27,174 bases of DNA from a virus. Its lineage: Duplodnaviria > Caudoviricetes. A program made the position numbers and the translations under genes. The DNA lies in IMG/VR virus record IMGVR_UViG_3300033516_000067, positions 1 to 27,174 of that record; one strand, 5' to 3'. The first letter of the stretch is position 1. Each line of letters begins with the position of its first letter. Of this stretch, positions 136-20,611 are shown piece by piece. Below the pieces are notes generated by a model. It worked only from the letters and a program-made list of their open reading frames with translations, did not search any database and was not told the DNA's origin.

Positions 136-169
136 CCGGCGCAACAGTTTCAAAACTTAGGAGTATTCC

Positions 170-1675: not shown

Positions 1676-1681
1676 AAGCGC

Positions 1682-1703: not shown

Positions 1704-1724
1704 CACCATCCATAAAGGGTACTT

Positions 1725-1940
1725 ATGAAAGTCACTTGTTCACTCCCCAATGCCAGCGAGCTAATCAGTGGCGTTACTTTTGCGCGTCAAGACGACGGTA
1801 CTGTTATCGCTACTGGTGTTCCGGCAGATGCGGCTGCGCAGTTCTCTGGGATTCCTGGATATGTGGTTGAGGATGGGCCTGAGAACGAAGAATCGGCCAA
1901 GCCCGCCAAGCATGGCAAGGCAAAGACTGATCCTTCCTGA
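1725..1940 (+). CDS. Small protein downstream of the capsid gene (possible head-associated protein)
   Basis: 71 aa; AAGGG upstream; DDGTV..FSGIPGY plus a Lys/Glu-rich tail resembles the small post-capsid gene recalled in Twort-like phages. Confidence 0.7.
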   Translation: MKVTCSLPNASELISGVTFARQDDGTVIATGVPADAAAQFSGIPGYVVEDGPENEESAKPAKHGKAKTDPS

Positions 1941-1956
1941 TCGCAAACAGCCAAAC

Positions 1957-1986
1957 AAGAGCCCGCCACTGTGCGGGCTTTTTCTT
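1957..1986 (+). terminator. Rho-independent terminator
   Basis: AGCCCGC-CACTGT-GCGGGCT followed by TTTTCTT. Confidence 0.85.
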
Positions 1987-1987
1987 G

Positions 1988-2010
1988 GTCGTGACACCAA
2001 GATAACGACA
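1988..2010 (+). promoter_or_regulatory. Putative late promoter 1 (GTCGTGAC-N2-CAAGAT-N6-ATG), leaderless
   Basis: Octamer 1988-1995, -10-like hexamer 1998-2003, predicted +1 = A of ATG 2010; directly follows a terminator; no SD. Confidence 0.75.
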
Positions 2011-2903
2011 TGAAATTCAATTCTCTGCAAGCACTCAGTTGCGGTAATGCGATCCGCATCATCGTCGAGCCGACTGCGGGCGAGTCTCGGTGGCGCATTC
2101 TGCGCAAAGAAACCAATGACTTTGCTGGGGCGGATGACCCGGGCGCATTTCGTGTTCATGATGGGGCGGACAGATTCCTGACTGATGCGCGTTTGCTGGC
2201 AAATGGCGTGACTTACTTTTACGCAGTTTTCGGGCGCATCGGTGATGTTTGGGCGGAGCCTGTTGTCTTGTCGGCTGTCCCGGCCGCAACCTTTGACGAC
2301 CTCAGTGTTGACGTTCAGGAGCTGGTGCGGGAACGGCTGGACCTGACGCTCAACGCCATGATCGCTCGCGGGAAGTTGGCTCTGACCAAGACGTCGCTTC
2401 CGGTCATGTCAATCCCTTTTTACACCCAAGGGGCAGAGTTTCCTGTGGTGACGGTGCTCTTTGGCGGCAGCTCTCCTTCTGTGCATGCACTGGGGGACGT
2501 AATGGGCAGCGATGTGCTGATTGAAGATGGGGTTGCCGAGATGCAGGGCTGGCTGTCTGCTGTGACCCTGGAGGTGTCAGCCTGGTCGCTGAATGCCGAA
2601 GAGAGAAACGTCCTTCGACAAGGGTTGGCCTCTGCTGTGGCGGCCAACCTGCATGTGTTTGACGATCTTGGGCTGCAGATGTTTGAGGTGCAGTCGGTGC
2701 AGGACACTGAAGACACGCAATCCATGAACGTCCCGGTCTATCAGACCATGATGCGATTGGGTTGCACGGCGGCGACCGTGGCTACCGACGAGTCCGGGCT
2801 TGTTGGCGATGTTGTGTTTTCCCGTCCGGGAACGTCTGGAGGCACGTCTGGCGGCGCAACGGTCGGCAGCATCGTGCTGGACAACGATTGTTTATGTTGC
2901 TAA
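2010..2903 (+). CDS. Putative tail terminator/completion protein with N-terminal FN3-like beta domain
   Basis: 297 aa just upstream of the sheath; N-terminal WRILRK..FLTD..L.NGVTYFYAVF is FN3-like; C-terminal FPVVTV..LEVSAWSLNAEERNVL fits tail-terminator-type proteins (inference). Confidence 0.55.
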   Translation: MKFNSLQALSCGNAIRIIVEPTAGESRWRILRKETNDFAGADDPGAFRVHDGADRFLTDARLLANGVTYFYAVFGRIGDVWAEPVVLSAVPAATFDDLSVDVQELVRERLDLTLNAMIARGKLALTKTSLPVMSIPFYTQGAEFPVVTVLFGGSSPSVHALGDVMGSDVLIEDGVAEMQGWLSAVTLEVSAWSLNAEERNVLRQGLASAVAANLHVFDDLGLQMFEVQSVQDTEDTQSMNVPVYQTMMRLGCTAATVATDESGLVGDVVFSRPGTSGGTSGGATVGSIVLDNDCLCC

Positions 2904-2925
2904 GTTTATTTTTTAAGGGGTTTTT

Positions 2926-3153
2926 ATGAGTAATGAACAAGTGGCCAAGGCTGCCAGCAAAGCAAACCAGGCGCCCGCGCCGACGAGTTTTGACTTGTCG
3001 CTCGATGAGTTCTGTGCCCGCCTGTCTGCATCAAAAGTCGGACCCGAAATGATCGGAGGCTTTTACCAAGCTCAGAAAGCAGCAGAAAAGACAAACGGCA
3101 GCGATGCGGATTTTTCCGCAGCCTTTGCCATTTTTGAAAAACAACCCGCATAA
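2926..3153 (+). CDS. Small hypothetical protein preceding the tail sheath
   Basis: 75 aa; AAGGGG RBS; fills the gap between neighbours; LSLDEF..MIGGF recalls the small pre-sheath gene of Herelleviridae. Confidence 0.7.
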   Translation: MSNEQVAKAASKANQAPAPTSFDLSLDEFCARLSASKVGPEMIGGFYQAQKAAEKTNGSDADFSAAFAIFEKQPA

Positions 3154-3165
3154 AGGAGCAGGGAC

Positions 3166-4878
3166 ATGGCTTTATTTTTCAATGGTCGTCAGTGGATTTC
3201 TCCCGCCGTCATGTCGGTTGTGGATGACAGCCGGATGTATGGACGCAAGCCGTCCGATGGCAACAACTTGGCCCTGATCGGCCGGTCTGACGGTGGCGCG
3301 CCAAACAAAGCGCTGGTATTTGGCTCTACTTCCGAGGCCAAGGCGATCCTGCGCGGCGGCGATTTGCTCCGGGCCGTTGAGCGCGCCTTTAATGCGTCCG
3401 CGCAAAGCAATGGACCCGCCAAGATCACGGTTGTCCGGGTTAACCCGGCAACACAGGCATCCTTGACGCTGAAGGACGCTTCTGCTGGGGACGCCATTGA
3501 TCTAAAGTCAACGAATTACGGGTTGCTGGAAAACCAGATTAAGGTCAAAGTCGAGGCTGGTACCAATACCGGGCTGAAGTTGACAACGCAATTTGGCACA
3601 TCGTACACATCCAAAGACGATGTGGCGCGGTCTGCATTTTCGGTTCAATATTCCGGCACGGGAACTGGCACCATCACGGTTGGCAACACCGCAGTCAGCT
3701 TGCTGCTGGACACCGTCACCACGACGATTGACCTGAATACCTACTTCACGGTGCAGATGCTTGTTGATCGACTGAATGCAGTTACCGGAATTGCGGCGGC
3801 TGTTCTTGACGGCAATGGCGATAAGCCGTCTGTCAATGGATTGGACGGTTTGACCAGCCAGGACATTAAAACTGCCCCGGTGAATGTCTCAGCAAACCTG
3901 CAGGCTGTCGTTGACTGGTTTAACTCACTGGGCGAGGAATTTGTCACGGCCACTCGGTCTGCAACAGCCACCAAAGTGCCAGCGCCCCTGGCTTTTACCT
4001 ATCTTTCTGGCGGCTCGGACGGTCTGGTGACAAATGCCGAATGGGCAGCAGCCTTTGACGTCCTGCAGTCAGAAGATGTTCAATGGGTGGTGCCGCTATC
4101 TGGCCTGGCTGCCATCCACTCGATGGCGGACGCGCATGCGGCTTATATGTCAAACATTGGGCGCAGAGAGCGGCGCTGCATCTGCGGAACGACATCAGGA
4201 ACCACTGACGCGAACGCAATCCTAGCCGCCAAGACGTTGAACAGCGACCGCACATCTCTCACGCATCTTGGCATCTATGACTATGACCAGTACGGGAAAC
4301 TGGTTTTGTTTGAGCCCTACATTGCGGCGGCCATGATTGCAGCAGCGTTTTCCGGCTTGAACCCCGGCACCCCGCTGACCAACAAGAGCATCAAGATTGC
4401 CGGGCTTGAGCGCAAACTGCGCAACCCGTCGGATACCGACAGTCTGCTCTTGGGCGGGGTGTTGTGCATTGAAGACACACCAGAAGGCTTCAAAGTCCTG
4501 CAGTCCATTTCCACCTGGATGATCAATGACAACTACAACCGCCGTGAAGTGTCGGTTGGCGTTGCATGCGACTTCATGATGCGCAAGGTCCGGGGCTCAG
4601 TAGAGCAGCTACGCGGCTCGAAAAACAACCCGCAATCTCTGGCGTTGGCTTTGGAGATGGTCAAGGCGGCGCTGCTGGAACTGTCCCGGCCAGAGCCAAG
4701 CGGGCCAGGCGTGCTGGCTGGAGATACGGTCAACCCGCCATTCAAGAACTTGAGCGCATCACAGGAAGGCGATGTGATGCGTATCGAGTTCCAGGCCAGC
4801 CCGGTGTTGCCCATCAATTACATCCCGATCACGGTGTATGCGGTGCCTTACGCTGGTAGCTCGCTGGCAGCGACCTAG
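3166..4878 (+). CDS. Contractile tail sheath protein
   Basis: 570 aa; RBS AAGGAG; LALIGRSDGGAPNK..EAKAILRGGDLLRAVERAF, LSGGSDG, and C-terminal REVSV..IEFQASPVLPINYIPITV sheath signatures; N-terminus resembles the phage K/A511 sheath. Confidence 0.92.
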   Translation: MALFFNGRQWISPAVMSVVDDSRMYGRKPSDGNNLALIGRSDGGAPNKALVFGSTSEAKAILRGGDLLRAVERAFNASAQSNGPAKITVVRVNPATQASLTLKDASAGDAIDLKSTNYGLLENQIKVKVEAGTNTGLKLTTQFGTSYTSKDDVARSAFSVQYSGTGTGTITVGNTAVSLLLDTVTTTIDLNTYFTVQMLVDRLNAVTGIAAAVLDGNGDKPSVNGLDGLTSQDIKTAPVNVSANLQAVVDWFNSLGEEFVTATRSATATKVPAPLAFTYLSGGSDGLVTNAEWAAAFDVLQSEDVQWVVPLSGLAAIHSMADAHAAYMSNIGRRERRCICGTTSGTTDANAILAAKTLNSDRTSLTHLGIYDYDQYGKLVLFEPYIAAAMIAAAFSGLNPGTPLTNKSIKIAGLERKLRNPSDTDSLLLGGVLCIEDTPEGFKVLQSISTWMINDNYNRREVSVGVACDFMMRKVRGSVEQLRGSKNNPQSLALALEMVKAALLELSRPEPSGPGVLAGDTVNPPFKNLSASQEGDVMRIEFQASPVLPINYIPITVYAVPYAGSSLAAT

Positions 4879-4896
4879 TCGGTAATGCCGAAACAA

Positions 4897-4925
4897 GGAA
4901 CCCGGTTTTCCGGGTTTTTTTATTT
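4897..4925 (+). terminator. Rho-independent terminator after the sheath gene
   Basis: AACCCGG-TTTT-CCGGGTT followed by TTTTTATTT. Confidence 0.85.
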
Positions 4926-4947
4926 GGCAGTCCGGCCTGCTAATTCG

Positions 4948-4970
4948 GTCGTGACACAAGTATTGGAAGC
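4948..4970 (+). promoter_or_regulatory. Putative late promoter 2 (GTCGTGAC-N2-AAGTAT), leadered transcript for the tube operon
   Basis: Octamer 4948-4955, hexamer 4958-4963, predicted +1 near 4970; lies just downstream of a terminator; ATG at 4997. Confidence 0.72.
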
Positions 4971-4996
4971 CATAGCAACTCTTTGAGTAGTACAAA

Positions 4997-5416
4997 ATGG
5001 CAACCAATCTACAAGTCCGCACTGGCAACAAAATCACCGTGAAAATTGGTGGCAAAGACGTGGGCCTAATCGGCTCAATCCGCGCCTCAGACAACTACGG
5101 TTTAGAGCAGGCATCTGGCATTGGTGACATTCATGTCATCGAGTATGTGCCAACCACCGCCGTGCATTCGCTATCGGTACAGTCGATGGTGCTTTACACA
5201 AAGTCGCTGCTGCAGGCCGGGGTGACCCCTGAAAATGGCGCCATCACTCTCAATGGTGTGGTGGTCGATATTGTCATCACTGACAAAGACAAGGGCGTGC
5301 TGCGCACCTACTTGAACTGCAGCTATGACTCCGGTGACCTCGAAATCAGTGCCCACAAGATTGTCAGCGCCAACTGCCAATTTAAGGCGCTTGATGTGAC
5401 TGGGCAGCCGGCATGA
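4997..5416 (+). CDS. Tail tube protein
   Basis: 139 aa after the sheath; VRTGNKITVKIGGKDVG..NYGLEQASGIGDIHVIEYVP matches the recalled Twort-like tube pattern VHTGNTV...I.GK.VG..YG...V.EIG.I.P.E.V. Confidence 0.85.
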   Translation: MATNLQVRTGNKITVKIGGKDVGLIGSIRASDNYGLEQASGIGDIHVIEYVPTTAVHSLSVQSMVLYTKSLLQAGVTPENGAITLNGVVVDIVITDKDKGVLRTYLNCSYDSGDLEISAHKIVSANCQFKALDVTGQPA

Positions 5417-5736
5417 GGCGCGCAGCCCCTAACGACTTCCAGGTGCAGGTGGAAGGCCTGGGGTCGTTTACGATTGGTCGGCGCACCATGCGCGACGAGT
5501 TTGCGGTGGCGGCAGAGTACTCACGCTTGACTGAAGGCGTGCAAACACCAACCGACTTTTTGCATTACTACGCCCGTGCTTTTGCAACCGCAAAGGTTCT
5601 TGTCGTGTCGGCTCCGTCCGGCTGGGACATCGAAAAACTTGACCCACAAGAGGATGCTTCCTACGCGCAGATGATAGACGTCTTTGACGCTATCCGCGCG
5701 AAGGAAGCCGATTTTCGAGAGAAGCCGGGATCGTGA
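5413..5736 (+). CDS. Tail assembly chaperone (G-like)
   Basis: 107 aa between tube and tape measure genes; ATGA overlap with the tube stop; ends ..ADFREKPGS. Confidence 0.75.
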   Translation: MRRAAPNDFQVQVEGLGSFTIGRRTMRDEFAVAAEYSRLTEGVQTPTDFLHYYARAFATAKVLVVSAPSGWDIEKLDPQEDASYAQMIDVFDAIRAKEADFREKPGS

Positions 5737-5998
5737 TTGCAAAGAGGACGCCAAAGAAGTAGCTAAGACCGTCCGGTTCTGGTTTCGACGAAAGTATTCA
5801 CTCCCGCCCGCTGATCCGCGCTATCTGGATATGACAGAAGAGGGGATGCTGACTGAGTATTGGGCGCATTACTACTACGACAAACCGGACAGCGAATGGG
5901 AAGAGGACACCGACAACTTCGACGAAGAGGTAGCCGCCATGGATGCCGAGATGGGCATTCCTCCTGATGATGATTTTGAGGACATAAGCAATGGCTGA
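5717..5998 (+). CDS. Tail assembly chaperone extension (T-like), probably reached by +1 frameshift
   Basis: Overlapping +1 frame ORF (open from 5684) with no convincing own start; FWFRRKYSLPPADPRYLDMTEE and acidic tail; slippery GAT TTT CGA at 5710-5718. Confidence 0.7.
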   Translation, partial: ERSRDRDCKEDAKEVAKTVRFWFRRKYSLPPADPRYLDMTEEGMLTEYWAHYYYDKPDSEWEEDTDNFDEEVAAMDAEMGIPPDDDFEDISNG

Positions 5999-8900
5999 GT
6001 CGATACCCATTAAAGTCGAAACAAACGAGGCCGCTGCTGCCATCAACGAGCTGGGGAGATCGGCGGCAGATGCTGCTGAAGATTTCTCTGGTCTGACCAG
6101 CATGCTTAACGAGTTCCTGAAGCGCAGGAGCACGGAGCTTGGCAAGCCGGTTACTCTTTTCAGCCAAGATGATGTTGAGACGTTAAAGGCCATTCGGGCC
6201 GAATTCCAGTTATTGGTGCGAGACACCAAGGGCAGCGGCATCGGCAAGCAATTGAGCACGCAGCCTGGCGGGGCTGGCGCGGTGCGATCACCCGAGCAGA
6301 TCAATGGCAGGCTGCTGGAAAGTGACAGCCAGAAGCTGCAGGCAACATTGGACAAAGTCCTGATGTCTGTGTTGCGCAGACTCAGTGCGCGCACTGGCGC
6401 TTCAGTCACCGGGCTGACGGCAAATGATCTTGGCGCCGGAGGGCGACAGCACCCTCCGGTTAACCCGCCAAATCCGAACCAACCAAATCCTGACCCGGTT
6501 CCTCCAAGAAGGCCAAAAAGGCCAGATACACCGCAATCAAAAAGCGCCAAAGTGCTCGGTTATGCCGCGCAGCAACTGTCCCCACTGGGGGGTGGCGCAA
6601 TCAATCAAGCGGCATCTATGGGTGCCGAGGGCATGGCCGGGCGCGGCATGGGCGGCATGCTTGCAGGAGGCGGCATGGCAGGGCTGGCGGCAGGCGCCGG
6701 GATCGGCCTTGTCGCGGCAGGAATCTACAAGGCGGCCAGCGCGGTCAATGAAGGCATTGACCGCGAGAAAGTGCTGGCCACTGACATCGACAAATTCCGG
6801 CGCTCGCTCGGGACTACGGCTGACAGCTTCAGCGAGCTGCGGGACCAGAGCCGCATGGTTGGCGATCAGTTCAACCTGAATTACGAAACATCCAGAAAAA
6901 TCACCACCGAATTCGCCAACATTGCCAAGACCAACAAAGGCGCAGTAGATCAGGCGTCCGAAGGGGTTGGTCTGGCACAGGCGGTTGGCGTTGATGAAGC
7001 GCAAGGCGCCGGATTCATTGCGAGCTTGCGAAGAGACCAGAGCATTGGTGATAAAAAGTCGGATGCTCGCATCATGGGCATTCAGTTCGCTGAGGCACTA
7101 AAGCGCACCGGGTCCACTCTAAACGCCGGCGAGCTGATGTCCGCCATCCAGGGGTTTAGCAGCGACACAGCGCACCGTAGCCTCACGGCTGGCAACCTGG
7201 ACGGTTACGCTGGCATGCTGTCCGCGATGGTTGGGTCCAAGACGCCAGGTCTGGATATTGGCAATTCGCGCAGTCTGATGGCGCGTGCAGATGCATCGTT
7301 TCAGTCTGGCGGTGGCGCAGGAGAGGCCTCTAAAACTCTGCAGTTCATGGCGCTTGGCGGCGATCGTCTTGGCCTGATGGGCGTCAAGATGCGAGAGGCT
7401 GCAGGCATGATGGCCACCAACGATCAGGTTTTTGGTGACCCGAACAACCCCGTCAACAAGTACACAGGCGGGCAGATGCTTGGCCACAAAGGCAGCAGCA
7501 CCGGGCTGGAAGATTTGATCAAGATGATCAAGGACAATTCTGGCGGGAACAAAGAGCTTGAGATTAACACCCTCTCAAACCACCTGAATCTGAATCCCAA
7601 TGAAGCGGCCACTTTCCTCAACATGGAAAAAGAGGGCAAGCTGGGTGACACGCTGGCCATGGCGCGCCAGTACAAAGGTGTTGACCTCAATAAAATGTCC
7701 AGCGATGGCTACACCATGCTGGCCGACGTTGCGCACGCAAAAGGGGACAAAGGTGAACTGGAGTCCATCCGGGCCGGCCTTAATAAGCGAGCCGACTTGA
7801 GTGACGACCAGAAGTCTCAATTGGCGTCAATGGTTGGAATGGACGGCGCCAAGCTGCAGGACGCTCTGGTGAAATTCAGCACCACTTTAGAGCGCGAGAA
7901 AACGGAAGGCCAGAAGATACAGGAAAGCGCCACCAAGACAGCCAATGCAACCGACCGGTTGGCCGCGTTGTTAATTCCTGCCTCTGTAAAAAGCAATGAG
8001 CTGCTTTCCGCACTGGTGGAAAAAATGGCTCCTGACTCTGAAGCGGCAAAAAGAATCGCTGCAGCCAAAGAGGACGACCAACTGCGCGAGAAACGTCAAA
8101 TGGTCGAGTCTGGCGAGATTGATCCTGATCAGGTGGAGGCCAGAAACAGGAGATACAACCAGATAGCTTTTGAGATGCGCACCACCAACAGTACGCGCGA
8201 AAGCAAGGTCCGCAACGCGACAAAGCAAATCCAGGAGCTTGGCGACAAGGCCGTGCCCTACAGCGAGGTCGAAACAGCAAACCGACAATCCAGAAAACCA
8301 GATGAGGCCAAAATCAAAGAGGATGCGGCCATTTGGAACGAGGCGCAAGCGGCGGCAAAAAAGAAAGACGCAGAATCGTTGATTCGTAGTGGGGTTGACC
8401 CGTCCGAGCAAAAACCAAAATCTTCGACATCGCCATCGCAGCCAGTTGTGCCTGATGAAGTCCGGCGCAAGACTGCTGCAGAGTTGGCGGCTGAGACGGC
8501 CGCAGCAAAGCCGGCGGCTGTTGCTGGGGCAGATGGCACAGGCAAGCTGAGAATCAAAAATCGGGATGAGAATCTTGGAGGCGGCGAAACCAAGCCAGGT
8601 GTTTTCGACTTTGCGAATGCAATGCAGTCATCTCTTGGAGACGACTTCAAACAGTTGACGGCGGCGAACGACCGCTACCATCAGAAAAACTCGCCAAATT
8701 CCAAGCACACAAAGGGTCTGGCGTTTGATTTCACTGTGAATGACGCCAAGAAAAGCGCTGCTGCTGCAGCGTCAGCCAGGGCAGAGTTAGAGGCCGCAGG
8801 CGTCAAAGGGCGCGTTATTGACGAATACAAAAAGCCATCCTCAAAAAGCACAGGGGGGCACATCCACGTCGAGTTCGCCAACGAGAGGGAAGCCGCGAAC

Positions 8901-9149
8901 TATGAGAAATATAAAAAACGCTCCGACAGTCCATTGCAAGTTCCGAAGCCGGCAGGTATCCCTGATGGCAACCCCCAGGCCAGCGAGCAGGCCAAGGTTG
9001 AACGACAGATGGTCCAGGTGGCGTTTTCGAACCAGAAGCACTCCATCGACGTCAATGTCAATTCTGGCAATGGTGCGGATCGGCAGCAACAATCGCACCA
9101 GGTTGGGTGGGTTTCCAAGCCAAAAGCCGCAGGCACATTAGCAGCATGA
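5991..9149 (+). CDS. Tape measure protein with C-terminal M15/LAS-type Zn peptidase motif
   Basis: 1052 aa, Ala/Gly-rich helical, with a hydrophobic Gly/Ala stretch; follows the chaperones; GAGG RBS; C-terminal SKHTKGLAFDF..GGHIHVEF. Confidence 0.85.
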   Translation: MAESIPIKVETNEAAAAINELGRSAADAAEDFSGLTSMLNEFLKRRSTELGKPVTLFSQDDVETLKAIRAEFQLLVRDTKGSGIGKQLSTQPGGAGAVRSPEQINGRLLESDSQKLQATLDKVLMSVLRRLSARTGASVTGLTANDLGAGGRQHPPVNPPNPNQPNPDPVPPRRPKRPDTPQSKSAKVLGYAAQQLSPLGGGAINQAASMGAEGMAGRGMGGMLAGGGMAGLAAGAGIGLVAAGIYKAASAVNEGIDREKVLATDIDKFRRSLGTTADSFSELRDQSRMVGDQFNLNYETSRKITTEFANIAKTNKGAVDQASEGVGLAQAVGVDEAQGAGFIASLRRDQSIGDKKSDARIMGIQFAEALKRTGSTLNAGELMSAIQGFSSDTAHRSLTAGNLDGYAGMLSAMVGSKTPGLDIGNSRSLMARADASFQSGGGAGEASKTLQFMALGGDRLGLMGVKMREAAGMMATNDQVFGDPNNPVNKYTGGQMLGHKGSSTGLEDLIKMIKDNSGGNKELEINTLSNHLNLNPNEAATFLNMEKEGKLGDTLAMARQYKGVDLNKMSSDGYTMLADVAHAKGDKGELESIRAGLNKRADLSDDQKSQLASMVGMDGAKLQDALVKFSTTLEREKTEGQKIQESATKTANATDRLAALLIPASVKSNELLSALVEKMAPDSEAAKRIAAAKEDDQLREKRQMVESGEIDPDQVEARNRRYNQIAFEMRTTNSTRESKVRNATKQIQELGDKAVPYSEVETANRQSRKPDEAKIKEDAAIWNEAQAAAKKKDAESLIRSGVDPSEQKPKSSTSPSQPVVPDEVRRKTAAELAAETAAAKPAAVAGADGTGKLRIKNRDENLGGGETKPGVFDFANAMQSSLGDDFKQLTAANDRYHQKNSPNSKHTKGLAFDFTVNDAKKSAAAAASARAELEAAGVKGRVIDEYKKPSSKSTGGHIHVEFANEREAANYEKYKKRSDSPLQVPKPAGIPDGNPQASEQAKVERQMVQVAFSNQKHSIDVNVNSGNGADRQQQSHQVGWVSKPKAAGTLAA

Positions 9150-10561
9150 TTTCAGTACATACCCCTGGGATTGACATTGTTCTGATCAAGACTGTCAATC
9201 GTATCAATGTCTCCAGTTCAGACGGGTCCAATGCGAAAAACGCACGAATCAGTCTGACACCGTATCTCAACGAAGGCAGCTCTGTCACCGTCACGAAAGC
9301 CATCAACACGCCCAGCAACAGTTTCGCCATCAGAATGGGTGATCAGCTAGTACAGGGTTATGGCGACTCCATCTACAGCGTAGTGGAGCCCATGGACGTT
9401 GTATTGATTTACATGAGTCAAGTTGGCAAACCGAAGATTGTCATGCGGGGCGTGGTGACCGACACCAGTCTGGACGAGAGCATCAGTGCCGACGGCAAAC
9501 CAAGCCGGATTGTCACCATCACTGGCGGTGATTACGGCAGCGTGCTGCGCATGATTCAGATTTACTATTTGCGCGGCAGCAATGTCAAAGAGCTGATGGC
9601 CGGAATGTCAGGTCAATACCTGAAGGATATGTTTGGGATTCCTTATGTCTCCATGCCGGCGCCGACATTTTTGGCACTGTTGGTCATTTGCGTCATCAAT
9701 GTGTTTATTGACCTCATTGACAACCCCGATCTTCCACCGTTGTTGGTGAGCCTTGTCGGTGCCGATGATGAAGACATCGTTTACCCGCAAGGAATGCAGG
9801 CCAACCCCGAGGGTACTATGTGGAGCCATCTGCAAAAGCACGGGAACCTCGGACCGTTCTATGAGATTTTGTTCGATGACGGGGAGGATGCCACGACGTT
9901 GCACTACCGCAAGCCGCCATTCAAGCACCTGGATACGGGAGAGTACATTTTCCCTACTGGGCAAGCCGAATCTTTCAGCATCGGGGTTCACGAAATCGTG
10001 TCGATTCGGCATTCCAGGTCCGAGCGTGATGTAGCCAACTATTACTACGTCAAGGTGGCAGGTAGCGACTTCAAAACAGCAATGGACATCATCATGCTGT
10101 CAATCGTTGGAGACGGGTCTAAGCTGACCACAAAAGATTACCCGAACACGCTGGAGACGCTTTACGGTTTCAGAAAAATGGAGGTCAGCACTGAGCACGG
10201 TAGCCTCAAGACCCAGATGGTACGCGGGCAGTCGGAGTCTGACTATCAGCAAGGCGGAACAGCACACGCCGAGTACATAAAAAAGCAGATCAAGTATCTG
10301 CAAGACTGCAATGTTGACAATGTGGTTTTTGAGTCTGGAACAATCCGTTGCAATGGGCGGCCAGATTTCAAACCGGGGCAATATGCAGAAATTGATTGGG
10401 AAAATGGAAGCAGCGCATCTTGCTACGTCACCAGCGTGACACATAATTTTGAGCCTTACCACGGATACACCTGCACGCTACAGTATTTGCGCGGCACCGG
10501 ATTTGTCAACCGTACCGGCTCGCCGCACCCGTATGTTTATGGAAAAGGGGTTTATCAGTGA
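9146..10561 (+). CDS. Baseplate hub / tail-tip protein (T4 gp27/P2 gpD-like)
   Basis: Start placed at ATG 9146 (ATGA overlap with the TMP stop) rather than 9107; ITGGDYGSVL, SGTIRCNGRPDFKPGQ and YVTSVTHNF..YTCTL are hub-type motifs; lies between TMP and spike. Confidence 0.75.
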   Translation: MISVHTPGIDIVLIKTVNRINVSSSDGSNAKNARISLTPYLNEGSSVTVTKAINTPSNSFAIRMGDQLVQGYGDSIYSVVEPMDVVLIYMSQVGKPKIVMRGVVTDTSLDESISADGKPSRIVTITGGDYGSVLRMIQIYYLRGSNVKELMAGMSGQYLKDMFGIPYVSMPAPTFLALLVICVINVFIDLIDNPDLPPLLVSLVGADDEDIVYPQGMQANPEGTMWSHLQKHGNLGPFYEILFDDGEDATTLHYRKPPFKHLDTGEYIFPTGQAESFSIGVHEIVSIRHSRSERDVANYYYVKVAGSDFKTAMDIIMLSIVGDGSKLTTKDYPNTLETLYGFRKMEVSTEHGSLKTQMVRGQSESDYQQGGTAHAEYIKKQIKYLQDCNVDNVVFESGTIRCNGRPDFKPGQYAEIDWENGSSASCYVTSVTHNFEPYHGYTCTLQYLRGTGFVNRTGSPHPYVYGKGVYQ

Positions 10562-11325
10562 GCGACATTTACGTTGGTCGTGTCATCAAGGTTCACCAGC
10601 ATGACAATTCTCTCGACATCCAGCTTTCTTATGATGGCTCTATGCTGACTGCTGTCCCGTTGATTGGCCCGATGATGACGTCGTCATCTGGCGTAGTCAA
10701 CATGCATCACGCCGAAGGAAACGCGCAAGATGGCCCAGGCAGTGCAACCCGGGACATTTGCGTTATTGTGGCGCGCACCAGTGGCGGGTTTGTGGCACTC
10801 GGATTCCTGTCGCTGCAAGTCAACCAGATGGCTTTCAATCGAGACAACTTCAAAATTGATCGGCACGCATCGGACGTTTATCACACGATTGACAATTCTG
10901 GCAATGTGGAGTTTTCACACCCAAGCGGGACTTTTGTCCGTGTGGCAACCTCCCCGGAGCATGAGAACCTGAGCGGCCAAGACACCGACAAAATATGGAG
11001 CATCACGCGCAACAAATCGGCGGCGGTGTGGCTCTCTGTGGTGGTGGCAAACGCCGGTGGAGTTAAGGCCGACATCCGGATTGACCCGAGTGGCAACGTG
11101 ACCCTTTCCAATGTCGGTGACCTGACGCTCACGACTACCGGGAACACCAGCATTTCGGCGGCATCCGTGACCATTAACGGGCCGACCACCATCAATGGGA
11201 CAACTGCCATCAACGGTGCAGGGCTTACGCATAACGGCGTAAATGTTGGGTTTGATCATGTCCACGGCGGTATCGTGCCTGGGGATGGGTTCACGCTTGG
11301 TCCTGGTGATCCACCAGAAGAGTAA
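10558..11325 (+). CDS. Baseplate central spike (P2 gpV/Mu gp45-like)
   Basis: 255 aa; GTG start overlapping the previous TGA; N-terminal VGRVIKVH OB-fold-like segment, beta-helix repeats (GNVTL, GDLTL, GNTSI, INGPTTING) and apex HVHGGI motif. Confidence 0.85.
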   Translation: MSDIYVGRVIKVHQHDNSLDIQLSYDGSMLTAVPLIGPMMTSSSGVVNMHHAEGNAQDGPGSATRDICVIVARTSGGFVALGFLSLQVNQMAFNRDNFKIDRHASDVYHTIDNSGNVEFSHPSGTFVRVATSPEHENLSGQDTDKIWSITRNKSAAVWLSVVVANAGGVKADIRIDPSGNVTLSNVGDLTLTTTGNTSISAASVTINGPTTINGTTAINGAGLTHNGVNVGFDHVHGGIVPGDGFTLGPGDPPEE

Positions 11326-11335
11326 TCTGGCGGCT

Positions 11336-11358
11336 GTCGTGACGGTACGCTGACCTCA
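11336..11358 (+). promoter_or_regulatory. Putative late promoter 3 (GTCGTGAC-N2-TACGCT-N6-ATG), leaderless
   Basis: Octamer 11336-11343, hexamer 11346-11351, ATG 11358 exactly 14 nt after the octamer; no SD. Confidence 0.78.
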
Positions 11359-12107
11359 TGCCATCCCTATTCAATCAAGACCAGTTTCTGGAGTCGTTCC
11401 GGGCCGACAGGTTGCCTGCTGTGCAGCGCTACTTGTCAGGCTCGGTAAGTGACGATTACCTTCTGGCAAAACTGTTTGCTGCTGAATCGACCGTACAGCG
11501 CGAGTTGCACGTTTACTTGACGCCTACCGTGTTGTTTCCAAATGACCCAACACAGGCCGAAATTGACGCCTTGGCGGGGGCTTCTTGGGACGTTGACCCT
11601 GGTTACGACTACACCGAGGACATGATCCAGCCTGGCGGTTGGACGTTCATCCCGCTGCGGCAGCGCCCGGTGATCGCGCTGGAGTCCATCAAGTTCATCT
11701 ACCCGTTTGGCGGCACGGTACTCACAGTTCCACCCGAGTGGATCAAGCTCGACAAGAAATACGGCCACATCCGGTTTCTGCCGACCAACGCCTTTCTGGG
11801 TGCCTTGGGCGGCATGTTGATCGGGGGCATGGGGCTGCAGGGGTCACCGCAGTTCATTGAAGTGCGCTACACGGCTGGGCTAAAAAATGCGGCTGCTGAC
11901 TACCCTGATCTGCTTGATCTGGTCCAGCGCATCATCATGCGCAGCCTCATGTCAGACGCCATCGTTTCGGCGTCTGAGTCGATCAGTGCCGACGGCCTGA
12001 GCCAAAGCAAAAGCGCTCCCGATCTGGACAAGATGCAAGACGGCATTGACAAGTCCATGGAACTGCTGCGCCAGCGCATTCACGGCGTGCCATTGATGGT
12101 GATGTGA
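11358..12107 (+). CDS. Head-tail adaptor/neck protein
   Basis: 249 aa; AESTVQRELHVYL, LRQRPVIALESIKF, IEVRYTAG, SESISADGLSQS are typical of head-tail connector (adaptor) proteins. Confidence 0.7.
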   Translation: MPSLFNQDQFLESFRADRLPAVQRYLSGSVSDDYLLAKLFAAESTVQRELHVYLTPTVLFPNDPTQAEIDALAGASWDVDPGYDYTEDMIQPGGWTFIPLRQRPVIALESIKFIYPFGGTVLTVPPEWIKLDKKYGHIRFLPTNAFLGALGGMLIGGMGLQGSPQFIEVRYTAGLKNAAADYPDLLDLVQRIIMRSLMSDAIVSASESISADGLSQSKSAPDLDKMQDGIDKSMELLRQRIHGVPLMVM

Positions 12108-12736
12108 TGCAACTTGACCCGAACGCCTTCAATGGGCTCTTAAACTTTCTGGGCCAGACGTTTTCGTGGCGCAAATCCTACGCATGCCCATGCGTCAACC
12201 CTGCAACCAATGCGCCACAATTAAACTGCCCGCACTGTCACGGCAAAGGGTTTCTCTGGGCAACTGCGGTCACTGGCGTGGCTGGCGTCCCTAGCCAAAA
12301 GGTGCAGCGCGAGTTTGCAAAGTTTGGGCAATGGGAAAGCGGAGACATGATGATTTCCGTGGGCAGCGATTCGCCTCTGTACGGCATGGGAGAGCGCGAC
12401 CGGGTGGTTCAATTGAATGGCGATGACCCGTTTTCTATCAACCTGCGCAAAGGCCACAACGACAAGCTGCCTTGGACGGCAAAGAAGATTGACCGGGTGT
12501 TTTGGCTGTCCGGTGCCGACATTGTTGAAGGCGGCATTCCAACACAAGACGCCACGGGGGCGCTGGTGTTCGCCTTCGGCGCGCCACCAACCGGCGTGAC
12601 TTACTCGGTCACCGGCACCAAGTACAGCGAGTACTTCGTGTTCCAGGAGTTCCCGACGGATAGAGGCCACCACTTCGGGGCCAAGTTGCCGCTGCGGGTT
12701 CAGCTCAGGCGGTTTGACCTATTTGGCAGGTCGTGA
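12107..12736 (+). CDS. Head closure/stopper-type neck protein with CPC..CxxC Zn motif
   Basis: TGATG overlap gives ATG 12107 (ORF track uses GTG 12104); WRKSYACPCVNP...CPHCHGKGF resembles the Cys-containing neck protein recalled in Herelleviridae. Confidence 0.7.
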   Translation: MQLDPNAFNGLLNFLGQTFSWRKSYACPCVNPATNAPQLNCPHCHGKGFLWATAVTGVAGVPSQKVQREFAKFGQWESGDMMISVGSDSPLYGMGERDRVVQLNGDDPFSINLRKGHNDKLPWTAKKIDRVFWLSGADIVEGGIPTQDATGALVFAFGAPPTGVTYSVTGTKYSEYFVFQEFPTDRGHHFGAKLPLRVQLRRFDLFGRS

Positions 12737-12752
12737 CAGGACTATGAGGATG
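12730..12752 (+). promoter_or_regulatory. Putative late promoter 4 (GTCGTGAC-N2-GACTAT), overlapping the upstream stop codon
   Basis: Octamer 12730-12737 contains the stop TGA 12734-12736; hexamer 12740-12745; predicted +1 at G12752. Confidence 0.72.
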
Positions 12753-12815
12753 CGCTCGGGATACGGTAGCTCCGGACAAGGCTGACGGCATAGCAGCTTT
12801 CCTTTGCGCATTCTT
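12746..12815 (+). ncRNA. Putative structured RNA leader upstream of rha (outer stem enclosing two hairpins)
   Basis: GAGGATGCGC (12746-55) pairs with GCGCATTCTT (12806-15); inner hairpins TCGGGA/TCCGGA (loop TACGGTAGC) and AAGGCTG/CAGCTTT (loop ACGGCATAG). Folded by hand only. Confidence 0.5.
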
Positions 12816-12837
12816 CTCTATGCGCCCAAGGAAAATT

Positions 12838-13416
12838 ATGCCTACTGTTCAATTCCCAGTTCTTAACTTTCAAGACTTCATTGCTGCCGATGGTGGCGGC
12901 AGATTGATTACAAGCTCGCATCAAGTTTGCTCTGTGTTTGGAAAGCGTCACGCCGATGTTCTGCGTGCAACCGAGAACATTATTGCAAACTGCCCTCCTG
13001 AATATGCCCAACGCAATTTTGCGTTAGTAATGGAATCAATGACTTACGTCGATTCTTTCGGCGATTCTGTGACAAAGGAAACGGGTCGCGTTGGTCATAT
13101 TGAAATGACAAAGAATGGTTTCATTTTGCTTGCCATGGGGTTCACTGGCAAAAAAGCCATGAGCTTCAAAATCGCATACATCAATGCGTTTGATGCGATG
13201 GCGGACTTTATTCTGAACAAGGCGATTGGGATTCGCTTCAAACTTGATCGCAATGAGCTTGAAGAAAAAGACAGCTTTCGACGTGGATCAATTCATGGTC
13301 GTGGTTTGCGCGAGCGCAGGATTGAAAAACCTTTACTCAAGGCAGAGCACGAAGTGTTGAGCGCAAAACTCCAGCCGTTTCTGCCGATGTTTGAAGAGCA
13401 CCCAACGGTCCAGTAA
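12838..13416 (+). CDS. rha: Rha family phage regulatory protein
   Basis: TSSHQVCSVFGKRHADVLRA..NFA..MTKNGFILLAMGFTGKKAMSFKIAYINAFDAM is the Rha signature; start chosen at ATG 12838 behind AAGGA (alternative ATG 12820); more AT-rich than neighbours. Confidence 0.9.
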   Translation: MPTVQFPVLNFQDFIAADGGGRLITSSHQVCSVFGKRHADVLRATENIIANCPPEYAQRNFALVMESMTYVDSFGDSVTKETGRVGHIEMTKNGFILLAMGFTGKKAMSFKIAYINAFDAMADFILNKAIGIRFKLDRNELEEKDSFRRGSIHGRGLRERRIEKPLLKAEHEVLSAKLQPFLPMFEEHPTVQ

Positions 13417-14201
13417 TGGCCTACACCGTTTCATTCGATGCTGCCAGCTTGATCGCTGGCATGAACTTGCAGCTTGAGAAGGCCATAGCCCAAGCCGTGC
13501 AAAACACGGCATTGACGACACAAGCCGCCTGGCAGCAGACTGTGCTGCAAACACCCGGAATTTGGCAGCCAACCAAAGACCGGTACGCGGGTTCCATAAA
13601 AGTGGAATTCGACACAAATGGCATGGGCGCACGGATTTACTCCGATGACCCGATGGCCACTCCGATTGAGCGTGGTATGCCAGCGCGCGACCTGAAGCAA
13701 ATGCTCAATACGTCCCTGAAGACAAGGGTTGCAAAAGGTGGAAAGCACGCCGGGCAGCGGTATCTCATAATTCCTTTCAGACATTCGACCCCAGGCTACA
13801 CCGCACACGGCAACGATATGCCGGCCGATGTCTATGCCAAAGCCAAGGAACTGACCAAGTCAAGCGTCACCAAGATGAGTTTCAGGAAAAACCAGATTGG
13901 GGTGTATGGCTTTACTGGCGCACGGGCTGGGTCAAAGTTGCTTGTCCGCTCGCGGACATACAACTGGGGCGGACGACTCGGGCCTGATGTTCCCAAGCGG
14001 TTTCAGGGCATGGTTCGGTTCAACACCAGCAGCGGGGGACAGCAATCCAGTTCGTACATCACATTCAGGTGCATGTTTGAGGACTCTACTGGCTGGATCA
14101 TCCCGGCCAAGCCTGGGCGCTACATAGCCAAATCAATATCAGAACAAGCCCAGCAAATGCTCAAGACCGAGGTCACGGCTGCCATCGCCAGTGTGTCGTG
14201 A
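13416..14201 (+). CDS. Putative neck/tail-completion protein
   Basis: 261 aa, basic; YAGSI, IERG..RDLK, RYLIIPFRH, YITFR, GWIIPA motifs resemble myovirus neck proteins; TAATG coupling to rha. Confidence 0.6.
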   Translation: MAYTVSFDAASLIAGMNLQLEKAIAQAVQNTALTTQAAWQQTVLQTPGIWQPTKDRYAGSIKVEFDTNGMGARIYSDDPMATPIERGMPARDLKQMLNTSLKTRVAKGGKHAGQRYLIIPFRHSTPGYTAHGNDMPADVYAKAKELTKSSVTKMSFRKNQIGVYGFTGARAGSKLLVRSRTYNWGGRLGPDVPKRFQGMVRFNTSSGGQQSSSYITFRCMFEDSTGWIIPAKPGRYIAKSISEQAQQMLKTEVTAAIASVS

Positions 14202-14217
14202 CTCTATCCTGCCCTGA
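14195..14217 (+). promoter_or_regulatory. Putative late promoter 5 (GTCGTGAC-N2-TATCCT-N6-ATG), leaderless
   Basis: Octamer 14195-14202 contains the stop TGA 14199-14201; hexamer 14205-14210; ATG 14217; no SD. Confidence 0.78.
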
Positions 14218-15356
14218 TGATTGACCAAGGCACCTATCTCGGCAAAGCCATCAAGCCCAGCCACGAACACGACATCTGGGCGCCGTTTGATTCGCCCTAT
14301 CTTGCCGATCTGGTCGAAGCCTTCACCCACACCGGCCAGGCCCACATCCAGTCCTTCAAGGACGCGCTTTCGTGGTGGCTGGCTACCCACGGTCAACCCC
14401 ACCAGAAAAATGCGTCACTGTCCCCACTGATGCCCGACATGCCTGTGCATTGGACCCAGACTGAGCTTGACGCCTGGAGCGCCTACTTCCACTCCAAACC
14501 CCGCGCACTGTGGCAGCCCGAGGACTGGTCCATGCTGGTCGAGTGGCTGCTGCAGCAATACTGGAGCCCGCAGTGGGCCGACAGCATGGCAAGCTGGCTA
14601 TCGGTCAAGTCCACGTTGCTTGGGCAAATCGAGGCCGGTCTGGCGGCCAACCCGCCAAGTGCGACAGTGGCCGCTGGCGTTGCTGCGGCGCTTCCGGTAA
14701 GCATCCCGTCTGTCATTGAGTTGGGACTGCCTGTGTCAAAGATCACCGAGGCCATGATCGCCTTTGCCCGGGTGCGCTGCGCTACAGCCATCGTTGACAT
14801 GGGTGAGAGCATGAAATCAGGCATCAGGTCTATCGTGCTGGAGCATCAAAAAGCGGTCATGCTTGGGGGCAAGCTGGAAAACATCCAGACCCTGCTTTTT
14901 GACAAGTACGCCACGGCAAACCGCGACTGGCGGCGCATCGCGGTCACAGAGGTGTCTGAAAACGCCGCGCAGGGCGTGGTGGCGGCCAGTGCCACTGGCG
15001 ACAAGCTCAAGCGCATTGAACAGTACAAGGGCGTGTGCGCTTGGTGCCACAGCATCAACGGCAAGATCGTCACCGTGGTGGACCCGGCCAAGCCAAACAA
15101 AGACGGCATGAACGAGGTTTGGGTTGGCAAGACCAACATCGGGCGGTCATCAGCGCCAAAAAAGCGGGTTGACGGCAGACTCTACGACCGCGAGCCAGAC
15201 GAGCTGTGGTGGCTGGCAGCCGGCGCACAGCACCCGCACTGCCGGGGTCGGTTCATTCTGTTTACCGGCATTGACCCTGCCAAGTACGATGCTTTCATGG
15301 CTGGCGTCAAAGCAAAAATGGCCCAACACCAGAAAGACGCTGCTGCCGGGTCGTGA
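14217..15356 (+). CDS. Head morphogenesis protein, SPP1 gp7/Mu gpF-like
   Basis: 379 aa; RDWRRIAVTE, CAWCHSINGK and QHPHCRG match the R...IA.TE / C..C / HPxCRC signature. Confidence 0.78.
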   Translation: MIDQGTYLGKAIKPSHEHDIWAPFDSPYLADLVEAFTHTGQAHIQSFKDALSWWLATHGQPHQKNASLSPLMPDMPVHWTQTELDAWSAYFHSKPRALWQPEDWSMLVEWLLQQYWSPQWADSMASWLSVKSTLLGQIEAGLAANPPSATVAAGVAAALPVSIPSVIELGLPVSKITEAMIAFARVRCATAIVDMGESMKSGIRSIVLEHQKAVMLGGKLENIQTLLFDKYATANRDWRRIAVTEVSENAAQGVVAASATGDKLKRIEQYKGVCAWCHSINGKIVTVVDPAKPNKDGMNEVWVGKTNIGRSSAPKKRVDGRLYDREPDELWWLAAGAQHPHCRGRFILFTGIDPAKYDAFMAGVKAKMAQHQKDAAAGS

Positions 15357-15372
15357 CATGACTATGCGCACA
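15350..15372 (+). promoter_or_regulatory. Putative late promoter 6 (GTCGTGAC-N2-GACTAT-N6-ATG), leaderless
   Basis: Octamer 15350-15357 contains the stop TGA 15354-15356; hexamer 15360-15365; ATG 15372; no SD. Confidence 0.78.
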
Positions 15373-17474
15373 TGGCAGCACCACCACCGACAAGTCAGAG
15401 ATTCCTGCACATTTCGTTTGCCCTTGTATTTGATGGCAACGCGATAGGCTATATCACTCTGCCAATAAACCCCGAGGAATTGACACGATCTGAGCCATCC
15501 AGGATGTCGGTCGTGAACACAATTGGCGGGGCGTGGGTGGATTCGTTTGGGCGCGGTCTGTCCACGTTGACAATCGCCGGGAACACCGGCTGGGGGTCTA
15601 ATGGCCGCCCAGATGGAGTGCAGCAGTTTATCCGCCTCAGAGACCACTTTATTCACAAGTGGCATGAGATTCGTCAAGACCGAATAAACAACGGTCTGAA
15701 TCCTGACGATGTGCGTCTGATGCTTATTGACCCATTGAACGGGCAGTATGTGGCTGACGTTGTGCCAATGGTGTTCACGTTAAAAAGAAGCAAATCGCAA
15801 CCGTTGCTGTTGGTTTACAACATCGTTTTGACTGTGGTGAACGAATCAGCAGAGAACAAATACCCGGAGCTATTAGAGGCAATAAACCCGGCTGACAAGG
15901 CGGCCACATCGATTGCATCGATGACGGACTCTGTTGTCAGCCTGACAGGCAGCGCGAGCCCTGCGTCAGTGGGCGGCGGGTTAATTGGTAAGCTAAACGG
16001 ATTCGCCGCTGATATTGGATCGCTCGGGACGTCAGCTTTGGATGCGACAAAGAATGCCTTTGCGCCGATCATGTCCACGGCGTCAGACATTATTGCCACG
16101 GCGAATGCTGCAAAACGTGTTTTGACTGAGGCAGAGAAAGCCGTTGTCGGGGTTGCCAGAGAGTTATCCGCAACGGCCACAAAAGTTTGGGATGCTGCTG
16201 GGGCTGTGGCCGGCATTCCAAATGCCGCAAAGGCGGCCATCATGCAGGTCAAGAGGGAGTTTTCCAATTTGGGATGTGTTTTGAGCAATGGATTCACCGA
16301 TGCCATTGAAGCCGCGACAGCCCCATTGCTCCCATATGGGTCATCCAATTGCTCCAGCACGGCTGGTGGTAGCGCCCCGTCAGACGGGGCCAATCCATTT
16401 GCTGGCACCACAACGCCTGGTCCTGTTGGCACGACGCCTGATGCTGTTGCGGCGATCAATGAAATCAACAATCTTGACTTGACGCAGCCAGTTGATCAGA
16501 CCTCTTTATCTGCGCTGATCGCGCGGGTGAGTGCAGGCGTTACCGTTGCTGGGACAGCGCCACCTGCCGCGACAGTGCCTGCACCAACGGTGACGGCGAT
16601 CAGCCCATCAACAGGGCCAAGGGGCGCTAGGACGACTGTCACGATTACCGGTACGAATCTCAGCGGGGTCACGCGCGTCAAGATAAACGGAGTCCTGTGC
16701 TCTGCCTTGAGTGCTAGCACCGATACATCAATCACCTGCGTCACCCCGGCTTCGGGGGTAATTGGCGCAGTCAGTGTGGTGGTGACAACGGCTGGGGGAG
16801 ATAGCGCAGGCAACAATCTGTTTACTTACTTCGAGCCAACGCCAACGCCTGAGCCGACACCGACACCAACGCCGACACCAACGCCGACACCAACGCCAAC
16901 GCCTGAGCCGACACCAACGCCAACGCCAACGCCTGAGCCGACACCGACACCGACACCAACGCCAACGCCAACGCCAACGCCAACGCCAACGCCAAGTTCG
17001 ATACCGGCCATTACATGGCAAGAGGCTATGGATCGCTGGGTGTCAGAGCACCCCACAGCAACACTTCAGAAATTCCTTGACGTCCTTGAGCAATCTCATG
17101 TTGATGGGTACGATGTAGAAACTGGCCTTGCTATAAATAATGGTGTTACATATTACATAGCAAAGTATCACAAGCCAACAGCACAGCCTCCGAAAGAAAT
17201 AACATATTACTTGAGCACCCTTGGGTATGTTGTGCCAGGACAAATTATTAAGGTGTATTTCAGCGTCACAAATCCAACAGAAGAAGCGATAAAACTTTCT
17301 TATACATATTTTAACGGAACGTCACATTCTTCTGAAATAGATATAGAAACGGTGAATGTATCTGAGACAAACAGGATATTCAAGCCGACAATAAATCCAA
17401 TCTCTGATATATCAGTAATCCATCTATATGCAAAAGGTACTGATGGCAGCGTGAAAGCATCGTTCGTACAATGA
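15372..17474 (+). CDS. Tail-tube-initiator-like baseplate protein extended by an IPT/TIG domain, Pro-Thr linker and AT-rich C-terminal domain
   Basis: 700 aa; [35 protein letters not shown] is tube-initiator-like; [29 protein letters not shown] is IPT/TIG; long (PT)n tract. Confidence 0.7.
16833..16994 (+). repeat. Hexamer tandem repeat (CCRACR, with interspersed CCTGAG) encoding a (PT/PE)n linker
   Basis: About 160 bp of CCAACG/CCGACA units seen directly. Confidence 0.95.
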
Positions 17475-20568: not shown

Positions 20569-20591
20569 GTCGTGACGCTACCTTATGTGGC
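20569..20591 (+). promoter_or_regulatory. Putative late promoter 7 (GTCGTGAC-N2-TACCTT), leadered transcript for the fibre operon
   Basis: Octamer 20569-20576, hexamer 20579-20584, predicted +1 near 20591; SD GAGGT 20601-20605 before ATG 20612. Confidence 0.75.
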
Positions 20592-20611
20592 AACACACAT
20601 GAGGTATTTTC

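Follow-up and report, generated by a model that had tools for sequence, protein, structure and literature searches.

The window analyzed here is the entire 27,174-nucleotide (nt) stretch of IMG/VR record IMGVR_UViG_3300033516_000067, which comprises a myovirus head-tail module whose structural genes are SPO1/Twort-like and cover the capsid, sheath, tube, neck, baseplate, and fibers. Dispersed among these genes are seven copies of an octamer, GTCGTGAC, all on the + strand, at positions 1988, 4948, 11336, 12730, 14195, 15350, and 20569. We hold with considerable confidence that this octamer and the hexamer downstream of it represent a clade-wide promoter class that is predicted to yield leaderless messenger RNAs (mRNAs) for the genes beginning at 2010, 11358, 14217, and 15372.

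All seven copies fit the pattern GTCGTGAC-N2-NANNNT (equivalent to GTCGTGAC-N3-A-N3-T), compared to a mean of 0.02 matches and a maximum of 1 in 100 shuffles. The hexamers (CAAGAT, AAGTAT, TACGCT, GACTAT, TATCCT, GACTAT, and TACCTT) all carry the A-11 and T-7 of a −10 element. At four copies, an ATG lies exactly 14 nt after the octamer and 6 nt after the hexamer, and opens a reading frame (ORF) of 297, 249, 379, or 700 amino acids (aa), respectively. At the remaining three copies, the leader measures about 21, 27, or 86 nt. The copies and their surroundings are as follows.

1960..1986, + strand: intrinsic-terminator-like hairpin and T run closing the capsid transcript before copy 1; read from the sequence, with a scan listing the same hairpin on the − strand only
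1988..2003, + strand: promoter copy 1, GTCGTGAC-AC-CAAGAT; predicted +1 at 2010, the A of ATG
2010..2903, + strand: tail terminator gene (by fold), 297 aa, predicted leaderless; the transcript also carries 2926–3153 and the sheath gene
4899..4924, + strand: terminator-like hairpin and T run 3′ of the sheath gene; read from the sequence, with the scan listing the hairpin on the − strand
4948..4963, + strand: promoter copy 2; predicted +1 at ~4970, with the tail tube ATG at 4997 after a 27-nt leader
11336..11351, + strand: promoter copy 3, GTCGTGAC-GG-TACGCT; predicted +1 at 11358
11358..12107, + strand: head-tail adaptor gene (by profile match), 249 aa, predicted leaderless
12730..12745, + strand: promoter copy 4, whose TGA stops ORF 12104–12736; predicted +1 at ~12752, giving a long leader to the rha-like gene with an SD-led ATG at 12838 (SD, Shine–Dalgarno sequence)
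14195..14210, + strand: promoter copy 5, whose TGA stops ORF 13416–14201; predicted +1 at 14217
14217..15356, + strand: Mu gpF-like minor head gene (Phage_Mu_F in family members, conserved N-terminus), 379 aa, predicted leaderless
15350..15365, + strand: promoter copy 6, whose TGA stops ORF 14217–15356; predicted +1 at 15372
15372..17474, + strand: tail tube initiator gene (by Pfam) with an IPT/TIG domain and a Pro-Thr repeat, 700 aa, predicted leaderless
20569..20584, + strand: promoter copy 7; predicted +1 at ~20591, with baseplate gene 20612 (BW3TFN) after a 21-nt leader that bears an SD
20569..20616, + strand: hairpin (−25.4 kcal/mol, z −4.8) that would sequester both SD and ATG of 20612 on RNA read through from upstream

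The initial annotation had proposed that the four ATGs at this fixed distance from octamer and hexamer lack SD sequences, and both the positions and the pairing energies agree with this proposal. Calculated pairing with the anti-SD 5′ of 2010, 11358, 14217, and 15372 amounts to −0.7, −3.2, +0.6, and +0.6 kcal/mol, compared to −6.8 kcal/mol for the capsid gene and −7.9 kcal/mol for the sheath gene, whose strong SDs had been noted correctly. The accompanying view that the other copies serve SD-led genes holds for gene 20612 (−6.9 kcal/mol) and, with a weak SD, for the tube (−2.2 kcal/mol), but the AAGGA assigned to rha precedes the ATG at 12838 and not the first ATG at 12820.

Judged from homologous proteins, the +14 ATGs are the true start codons. 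In each of the four families, the alignment of homologous proteins begins at the +14 Met, which speaks against the different start codons that the initial annotation had named as a possible refutation, and the first conserved motif of the 2010 family lies at residue 11–12 in 98 of 150 homologues from a profile search (the pattern is absent in 34). Furthermore, the 14-nt spacing places the TGA of the octamer in frame with the ATG and 18 nt upstream of it, so that a longer reading is impossible. This TGA also serves as the stop codon of the preceding ORF at copies 12730, 14195, and 15350. In Pseudomonas phage Dolphis, GenBank places the starts of gp15 and gp25 too far downstream, by 162 and 60 nt relative to the +14 ATG (L009:14320 and 23688), and the terminase ATG is position 1 of the record, 14 nt past an octamer at 93486, across the record end.

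No identity for the 2010 product was obtained by sequence searches, and it was fold comparison that revealed its likeness to tail terminators (the neck chain of phage 812, E 7e-7; lambda gpU; T5 p142). A profile search matched the 11358 product with 8q01, the adaptor/neck protein of phage 812 (E 1.9e-5), and the 15372 product contains the tube-initiator domain PF23980 (E 8e-14). Phage_Mu_F was found in two of nine members of the 14217 family, the window's own protein not being among them. Thus, the labels originally given to the terminator, adaptor, and tube initiator are firm, and the gpF-like label is only weakly assigned.

By capsid protein, the nearest named relatives are phages of Proteobacteria of ~90–95 kb with 41–67% identity. 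They include Bordetella PHB04, Pseudomonas Dolphis, Jeremy, and Touem01, Aeromonas ST4, and Yersinia fHe-Yen8-01, and further Escherichia ECML-606-1 and Enterobacter phiT5282EW. A Rhodovastum plasmid and Morganella Mecenats66 are also among the closest by capsid protein. The Thermus Lalka phages are more distant capsid relatives (the Lalka8 capsid is 33% identical). Ten records were searched whole, and in eight of these the pattern occurs 7 to 14 times per record, almost always on one strand, with a reversed control giving 0; Mecenats66 and Lalka8, both searched whole, contain no exact match. Mecenats66 (W08) has only degenerate copies, at 39560 and 46183, before its protease and terminator genes.

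A wider, redundant survey of 142 loci (2.5 Mb) yielded 376 sites versus 3 for the control. Removal of duplicates and of 6 ORF-less sites, with one site kept per 85% protein cluster, left 275 non-redundant sites. Among these, 101 have their in-frame ATG at offset 14 and 34 at offset 15 (135 total), no other offset between 8 and 60 exceeds 13 sites, and a broad second group appears at 30–48. The 14-nt spacing, which the initial annotation had suggested checking in related phages, is widely shared. A pyrimidine precedes the A in 33 of the 34 offset-15 sites, as expected if the start slips one base onto A. SD pairing of −4.5 kcal/mol or stronger was found for 3 of 138 leaderless-type starts, compared to 63 of 119 leadered starts and 22% of 600 random windows. 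Moreover, in-frame start codons at offsets 13–16 comprise 138 ATG versus 1 GTG/TTG, which matches the AUG preference of leaderless initiation known from E. coli and Caulobacter (PMC9031893). We also evaluated low 5′ structure as a leaderless signature, and rejected it as not specific (the first 40 nt fold at −4.6 kcal/mol versus −5.2 kcal/mol for leadered starts). The motif does not commonly occur as a host element: five bacterial genomes gave 24 motif-plus-ATG matches, of which 15 lie within ~25 kb of a prophage capsid gene and 9 were not examined.

Several characteristics of these sites indicate that the motif directs transcription. When no −10 filter is applied, A-11 and T-7 are present in 161 of 166 octamers that have an ATG at 14/15, and just 5 of the 105 octamers lacking these bases have an ATG there. 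No enrichment of a TTGACA-like −35 element at 16–18 nt was found at −34 to −23 of the clade sites, and a sigma-70 scan called none of the six copies within positions 1–16000. Terminator-like hairpins directly precede 53 of 274 sites versus 4 of 600 random positions, and window copies 1988 and 4948 each follow such a hairpin. In 28 of 33 relatives (L009:14298 and 27 other loci), the terminator gene lies head-to-head with a homologue of window gene 13416, such that no upstream message can serve the terminator gene. Twenty-four of these 28 loci carry a second promoter copy facing the opposite way; 15 of these are leaderless-type, and among the other 9, 7 start with A(A)GG, which is an SD at the predicted +1. 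The first two bases of the opposite copies are relaxed, often to GGCGTGAC, which reduces the core to CGTGAY. The window differs from this arrangement in that the terminator gene and 13416 are rearranged, with 13416 coupled to rha by an overlapping stop/start. In leadered copies, the initiator signal is modest, with a pyrimidine–purine step at +1 or +2 in 81 of 116 cases, compared to 45–72 at other adjacent pairs.

Given these sequence characteristics, the motif is very likely a late promoter composed of a box from −22 to −15 and a minimal −10 hexamer, without a −35 element. We infer the late timing from the virion, packaging, and lysis genes downstream. As the initial annotation had predicted, +1 very likely coincides with the A of AUG, to judge from the −10 geometry, the spacing, the lack of SDs, the AUG-only starts, and the back-to-back copies. 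We propose that host RNA polymerase would open the −10 hexamer via A-11 and T-7, while a phage factor would read the CGTGAY core in place of a −35 element. Transcription would then begin at the A of AUG, and 70S ribosomes would load directly onto the 5′ AUG.

Candidates for the phage factor are Dolphis gp82 and gp83 (L010:17689–18578; also L152:6001–6908), a Cys-rich pair that is conserved in Mecenats66 as well as in all six motif-bearing genomes compared with Dolphis, and that was not found in Lalka8. Searches with gp82 returned no Pfam, PHROG, or NCBIfam match and no named Atlas cluster, only weak CxxCH-type sequence matches in the PDB, and its model (predicted local distance difference test, pLDDT, 89) gave no Foldseek match. 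For gp83, there is one marginal Q-like PHROG match (E 0.04). Among gp82 homologues, 95 of 120 end in a Q-x-x-L-F-like motif, which resembles a sliding-clamp-binding motif. It is a guess that the pair serves as a late activator or as a replication factor; possibly, the two proteins form a zinc-binding pair that acts as the activator, with the clamp-like motif tying late transcription to replication. Dolphis gp82 (L010:17689) is annotated shorter than its conserved ORF.

Copy 20569 exhibits an additional feature. In phage T4, translation of e and soc is gated by a hairpin, which late transcription starts remove. Similarly, the SD and ATG of 20612 are paired in read-through RNA, wherein an 11-bp hairpin is extended by an outer stem and the octamer itself pairs with the ATG. 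The predicted +1 falls within the hairpin loop (20590–20595), and RNA starting at 20591 folds at only −4.7 kcal/mol. Promoter-overlapping hairpins or terminators are present in a few relatives (ECML-606-1 7559, fHe-Yen8-01 30137, and Dolphis 28081). Unlike the T4 case, a gating-type change is seen in few relatives only, and we rejected hairpin gating as a general rule of leadered copies: for 53 sites, read-through RNA compared to shuffled upstream RNA gave p 0.25, and large changes occurred in 5 of 53 sites versus 4 of 120 controls (Fisher p 0.13), with one other comparison giving p 0.02.

Where genes have become leadered, the ATG is often left at +14/15 as a mini-ORF of 2–13 codons (L068:5479, L133:4620, L133:6868, L008:14469, L070:13909, ECML-606-1 34491, and fHe-Yen8-01 3726). 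In 5 of 13 mini-ORFs, the stop codon exactly overlaps the start of the main gene, compared to a background of 32 of 197, which is suggestive only of coupling between a leaderless mini-ORF and the main gene.

The initial annotation had regarded systematic leaderless use for structural genes as unusual, which is overstated, given the leaderless late mRNAs reported for phiYS40 and Lalka27a. No upstream box is known in phiYS40. In this lytic phage, which is unrelated to the window phage and infects a leaderless-rich host, middle and late mRNAs are reported to be systematically leaderless (Sevostyanova et al. 2007, as cited in the review PMC3594737). Lalka27a has sixteen TAGGGT late promoters, with starts mapped 6 nt downstream for half of them and most transcripts leaderless (bioRxiv 10.64898/2026.04.20.719267). 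Lalka27a resembles the window phage in being a distant relative with many small late promoters that lack a −35 element, and in the absence of a phage RNA polymerase and sigma factor. However, promoter specificity in Lalka27a stems from the −10 element, TAGGGT, together with a C at −25, whereas here the −10 is minimal and the information lies in GTCGTGAY. No match to GTCGTGAY was found in Lalka8, and none of the seven window hexamers is a TAGGGT element.

In Lalka8, 14 of 24 TAGGGT sites have a start at 6–7 nt, and the genes affected overlap with those in the proteobacterial phages. Lalka8 gp50 and gp53 are leaderless-layout orthologues of 2010 (probability 96%) and 11358 (98%), gp37 is probably the 15372 orthologue (E 0.017 plus position) with the same layout, and the portal, protease, helicase, and tail chaperone genes are also leaderless-type. 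Since the same genes are leaderless-type behind another promoter, the leaderless state appears to be older than the promoter sequence. The two groups differ in that Thermus hosts commonly use leaderless mRNAs, whereas the hosts here are Proteobacteria, and in that 2 of 14 Lalka8 starts are GTG, which is almost never used in the proteobacterial clade.

The late promoters of phage P1 have a box at −22 and no −35 element, and P1 late mRNAs are not known to be leaderless. P1 is described as having about 11 dispersed late promoters, each with a short inverted-repeat box, served by the phage activator Lpa and host SspA (PMC10695390, PMC1891329, PMC8198154). The motif is similar in kind in its dispersed copies, 7 to 14 per genome, and in its near-palindromic box (GTC-GT-GAC), but the box sequence probably differs, and the motif need not belong to the P1 family. 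No Lpa homologue was found among 10 conserved Dolphis proteins or the 25 proteins of the window, which is without early genes; whole proteomes were not scanned. Kayvirus (Herelleviridae) shares the head-tail gene lineage of the window phage and also has late promoters without a −35 element, with starts 6 bp after the −10 (PMC7698491). Kayvirus differs in that a phage sigma factor recognizes its long −10 (TGTTATATTA), and the word “leaderless” does not occur in that paper. Literature searches on the motif, leaderless late promoters, and cultured relatives, which did not cover subscription papers, found no description of the motif, and the Mecenats66 paper includes neither “promoter” nor “leaderless.”

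Some observations weigh against our conclusion that these are leaderless mRNAs. The 5′ ends of the motif phages are predicted from −10 geometry only, in 25 of the 138 leaderless-type genes of relatives an SD-like site accompanies another in-frame start further downstream, and the search for an activator produced the conserved Cys-rich candidate that is without family or fold match. In addition, the upstream stop is just 15 nt from the ATG at 14217 and 15372, where coupling may add to or replace leaderless initiation. It is quite improbable, however, that SD-less ATGs in general are reached on polycistronic RNA by coupling, by 70S scanning from the upstream stop, or by TGA read-through. The octamer TGA does stop the upstream gene at three of seven window copies, two of these stops being 15 nt before the ATG and in frame with it, and no strong + strand terminator is listed between 4948 and 16000. 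Yet this TGA is the upstream stop at only 22 of 134 leaderless-type sites, 89 of the 134 lack any stop on the same strand in the 30 nt preceding the motif, and the frame is broken at the 34 offset-15 sites. Moreover, head-to-head layouts leave no upstream cistron, and copy 1988 follows a terminator, which leaves no good alternative to leaderless initiation for 2010. Thus, the terminators, back-to-back copies, and AUG-only starts favor true leaderless mRNAs over coupling.

Another idea, raised by the initial annotation, is that late genes with leaderless starts would still be translated when the phage or the host shuts off SD-led translation. Such an escape, via changes in IF2/IF3, is proposed for phiYS40 in a review (PMC3594737), and Dolphis has an annotated MazEF pair and an ADP-ribosyltransferase. 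Nonetheless, capsid, sheath, and tube genes have SDs in 62 of 72, 45 of 45, and 38 of 42 cases, so a shut-off would block the very proteins needed most, and the MazF model was not reproduced (PMC9031893). We found no evidence supporting shut-off resistance, and consider it very unlikely. We deem it most unlikely that the motif is instead an RNA-level or processing signal, or a promoter of unusual geometry that starts further upstream. The initiator signal of leadered copies is modest, as such schemes would have it (pyrimidine–purine in 81 of 116), but A-11 and T-7 are fixed (161 of 166), back-to-back copies face outwards, copies sit right after terminators, and the window has no Rfam match.

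It is less clear whether leaderless initiation has a consequence for protein dosage, as the initial annotation had suggested for presumably low-copy virion parts. Representatives are leaderless-type for the protease in 39 of 50 cases, the terminator in 34 of 39, the large virion helicase in 21 of 24, the tube initiator in 9 of 10, the gpF-like protein in 8 of 11, the portal in 7 of 12, and the adaptor in 5 of 13. None are leaderless-type for the tube (0/8), tail chaperone (0/9), BW3 (0/8), scaffold-like protein (0/6), or baseplate J (0/4). With first genes grouped by copy classes of our own, which are partly presumed and whose families are non-independent samples, 0 of 27 putative high-copy genes are leaderless versus 106 of 156 low-copy genes. 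Leaderless genes are low-copy genes, but not every low-copy gene is leaderless.

Under a dosage role, leaderless initiation would give low output tied to the gene's own promoter, and leaderless genes would stay largely silent on read-through RNA. The terminator and protease would be kept scarce although they head transcripts of the SD-led sheath and capsid genes. Indeed, the two genes that are leaderless most consistently, protease and terminator, head the transcripts feeding capsid and sheath, and this makes the strongest case for a damping role. For the window phage, the protease promoter is seen in a contig with an identical capsid protein (L066), with its ATG at 15. Several points count against such a role. 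Capsid (0/72) and sheath (0/45) genes have no promoter of their own and thus cannot be leaderless, such that these counts say little; the low-copy baseplate genes that do have their own promoter are leadered (BW3 0/8, baseplate J 0/4), as is the adaptor in 8 of 13; and the protease switches state six times on a quick tree, with at least five switches forced (2 of the 11 “leadered” rows have an ATG at 17–18). The stoichiometry proposal therefore stands insofar as high-copy genes are never leaderless, and falters with promoterless capsid and sheath genes, leadered low-copy genes, and orthologues that switch. We regard a dosage consequence as plausible, falling just short of probable, and as not distinguished from inheritance.

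The layout could well be simply inherited and compact, with no dosage role, if promoters reside at junctions and leaders are kept or gained more or less freely; we take this possibility seriously without calling it probable. Thermus phage Lalka8 has the same layout at the same genes under its TAGGGT promoter, its tail assembly chaperone also being leaderless-type, and the forced switches on the protease tree fit free exchange of leaders. The leaderless share is only 1 of 9 in ECML-606-1 and 1 of 7 in fHe-Yen8-01, compared to 3–7 of 8–14 sites in six other genomes, but these two phages are one clade, and so a link to enterobacterial hosts rests on one event. However, gene-specific retention despite a changed promoter sequence suggests selection, and all 23 proteobacterial representatives of the tube, chaperone, and scaffold-like genes are leadered, versus about half leaderless overall. 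We speculate more broadly that an SPO1-like lineage extending from Thermus to Proteobacteria phages has kept the terminator, adaptor, tube initiator, portal, protease, and virion helicase, all of them minor virion genes, leaderless through a change of promoter sequence and host phylum, as a means to set stoichiometry, with a new kind of activator in Proteobacteria, although we consider this version unlikely.

Other observations concern the window genes themselves. The tube initiator has 700 aa versus ~390 aa in relatives, and carries an added Pro-Thr/Pro-Glu repeat linker and IPT/TIG domain (window 16823–17017). The near-identical contig L001 lacks 38 nt of gene 14217 (window 14329–14366), causing a frameshift, and is shorter elsewhere too; the gap is either an assembly error or a polymorphism. 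A rha-family regulator (12730–13416) is placed amid the structural genes and follows a late-type promoter; in relatives L002 and L003, the genes inserted at a comparable promoter, whose leader is conserved, are different ones. No RNA element, C4-like or other, was detected in the rha leader, given that the window has no Rfam match and the leader folds no better than shuffles. Finally, fiber gene 25730–26704 contains a 30-nt repeat array (26015–26368) encoding 10-residue Ala/Ser-rich repeats.

Leaderless mRNAs are thought to be rare in Proteobacteria, with 20–30 in one E. coli study (cited in PMC9031893). If our interpretation is true, then these phages would provide a natural set of efficient leaderless mRNAs in this phylum. 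The analysis also corrects the annotated starts of Dolphis gp15 and gp25, and defines a compact phage-specific promoter that is testable in cultured phages of laboratory hosts. This would make it possible to test whether phages balance the parts of their particles through the mode of translation initiation.

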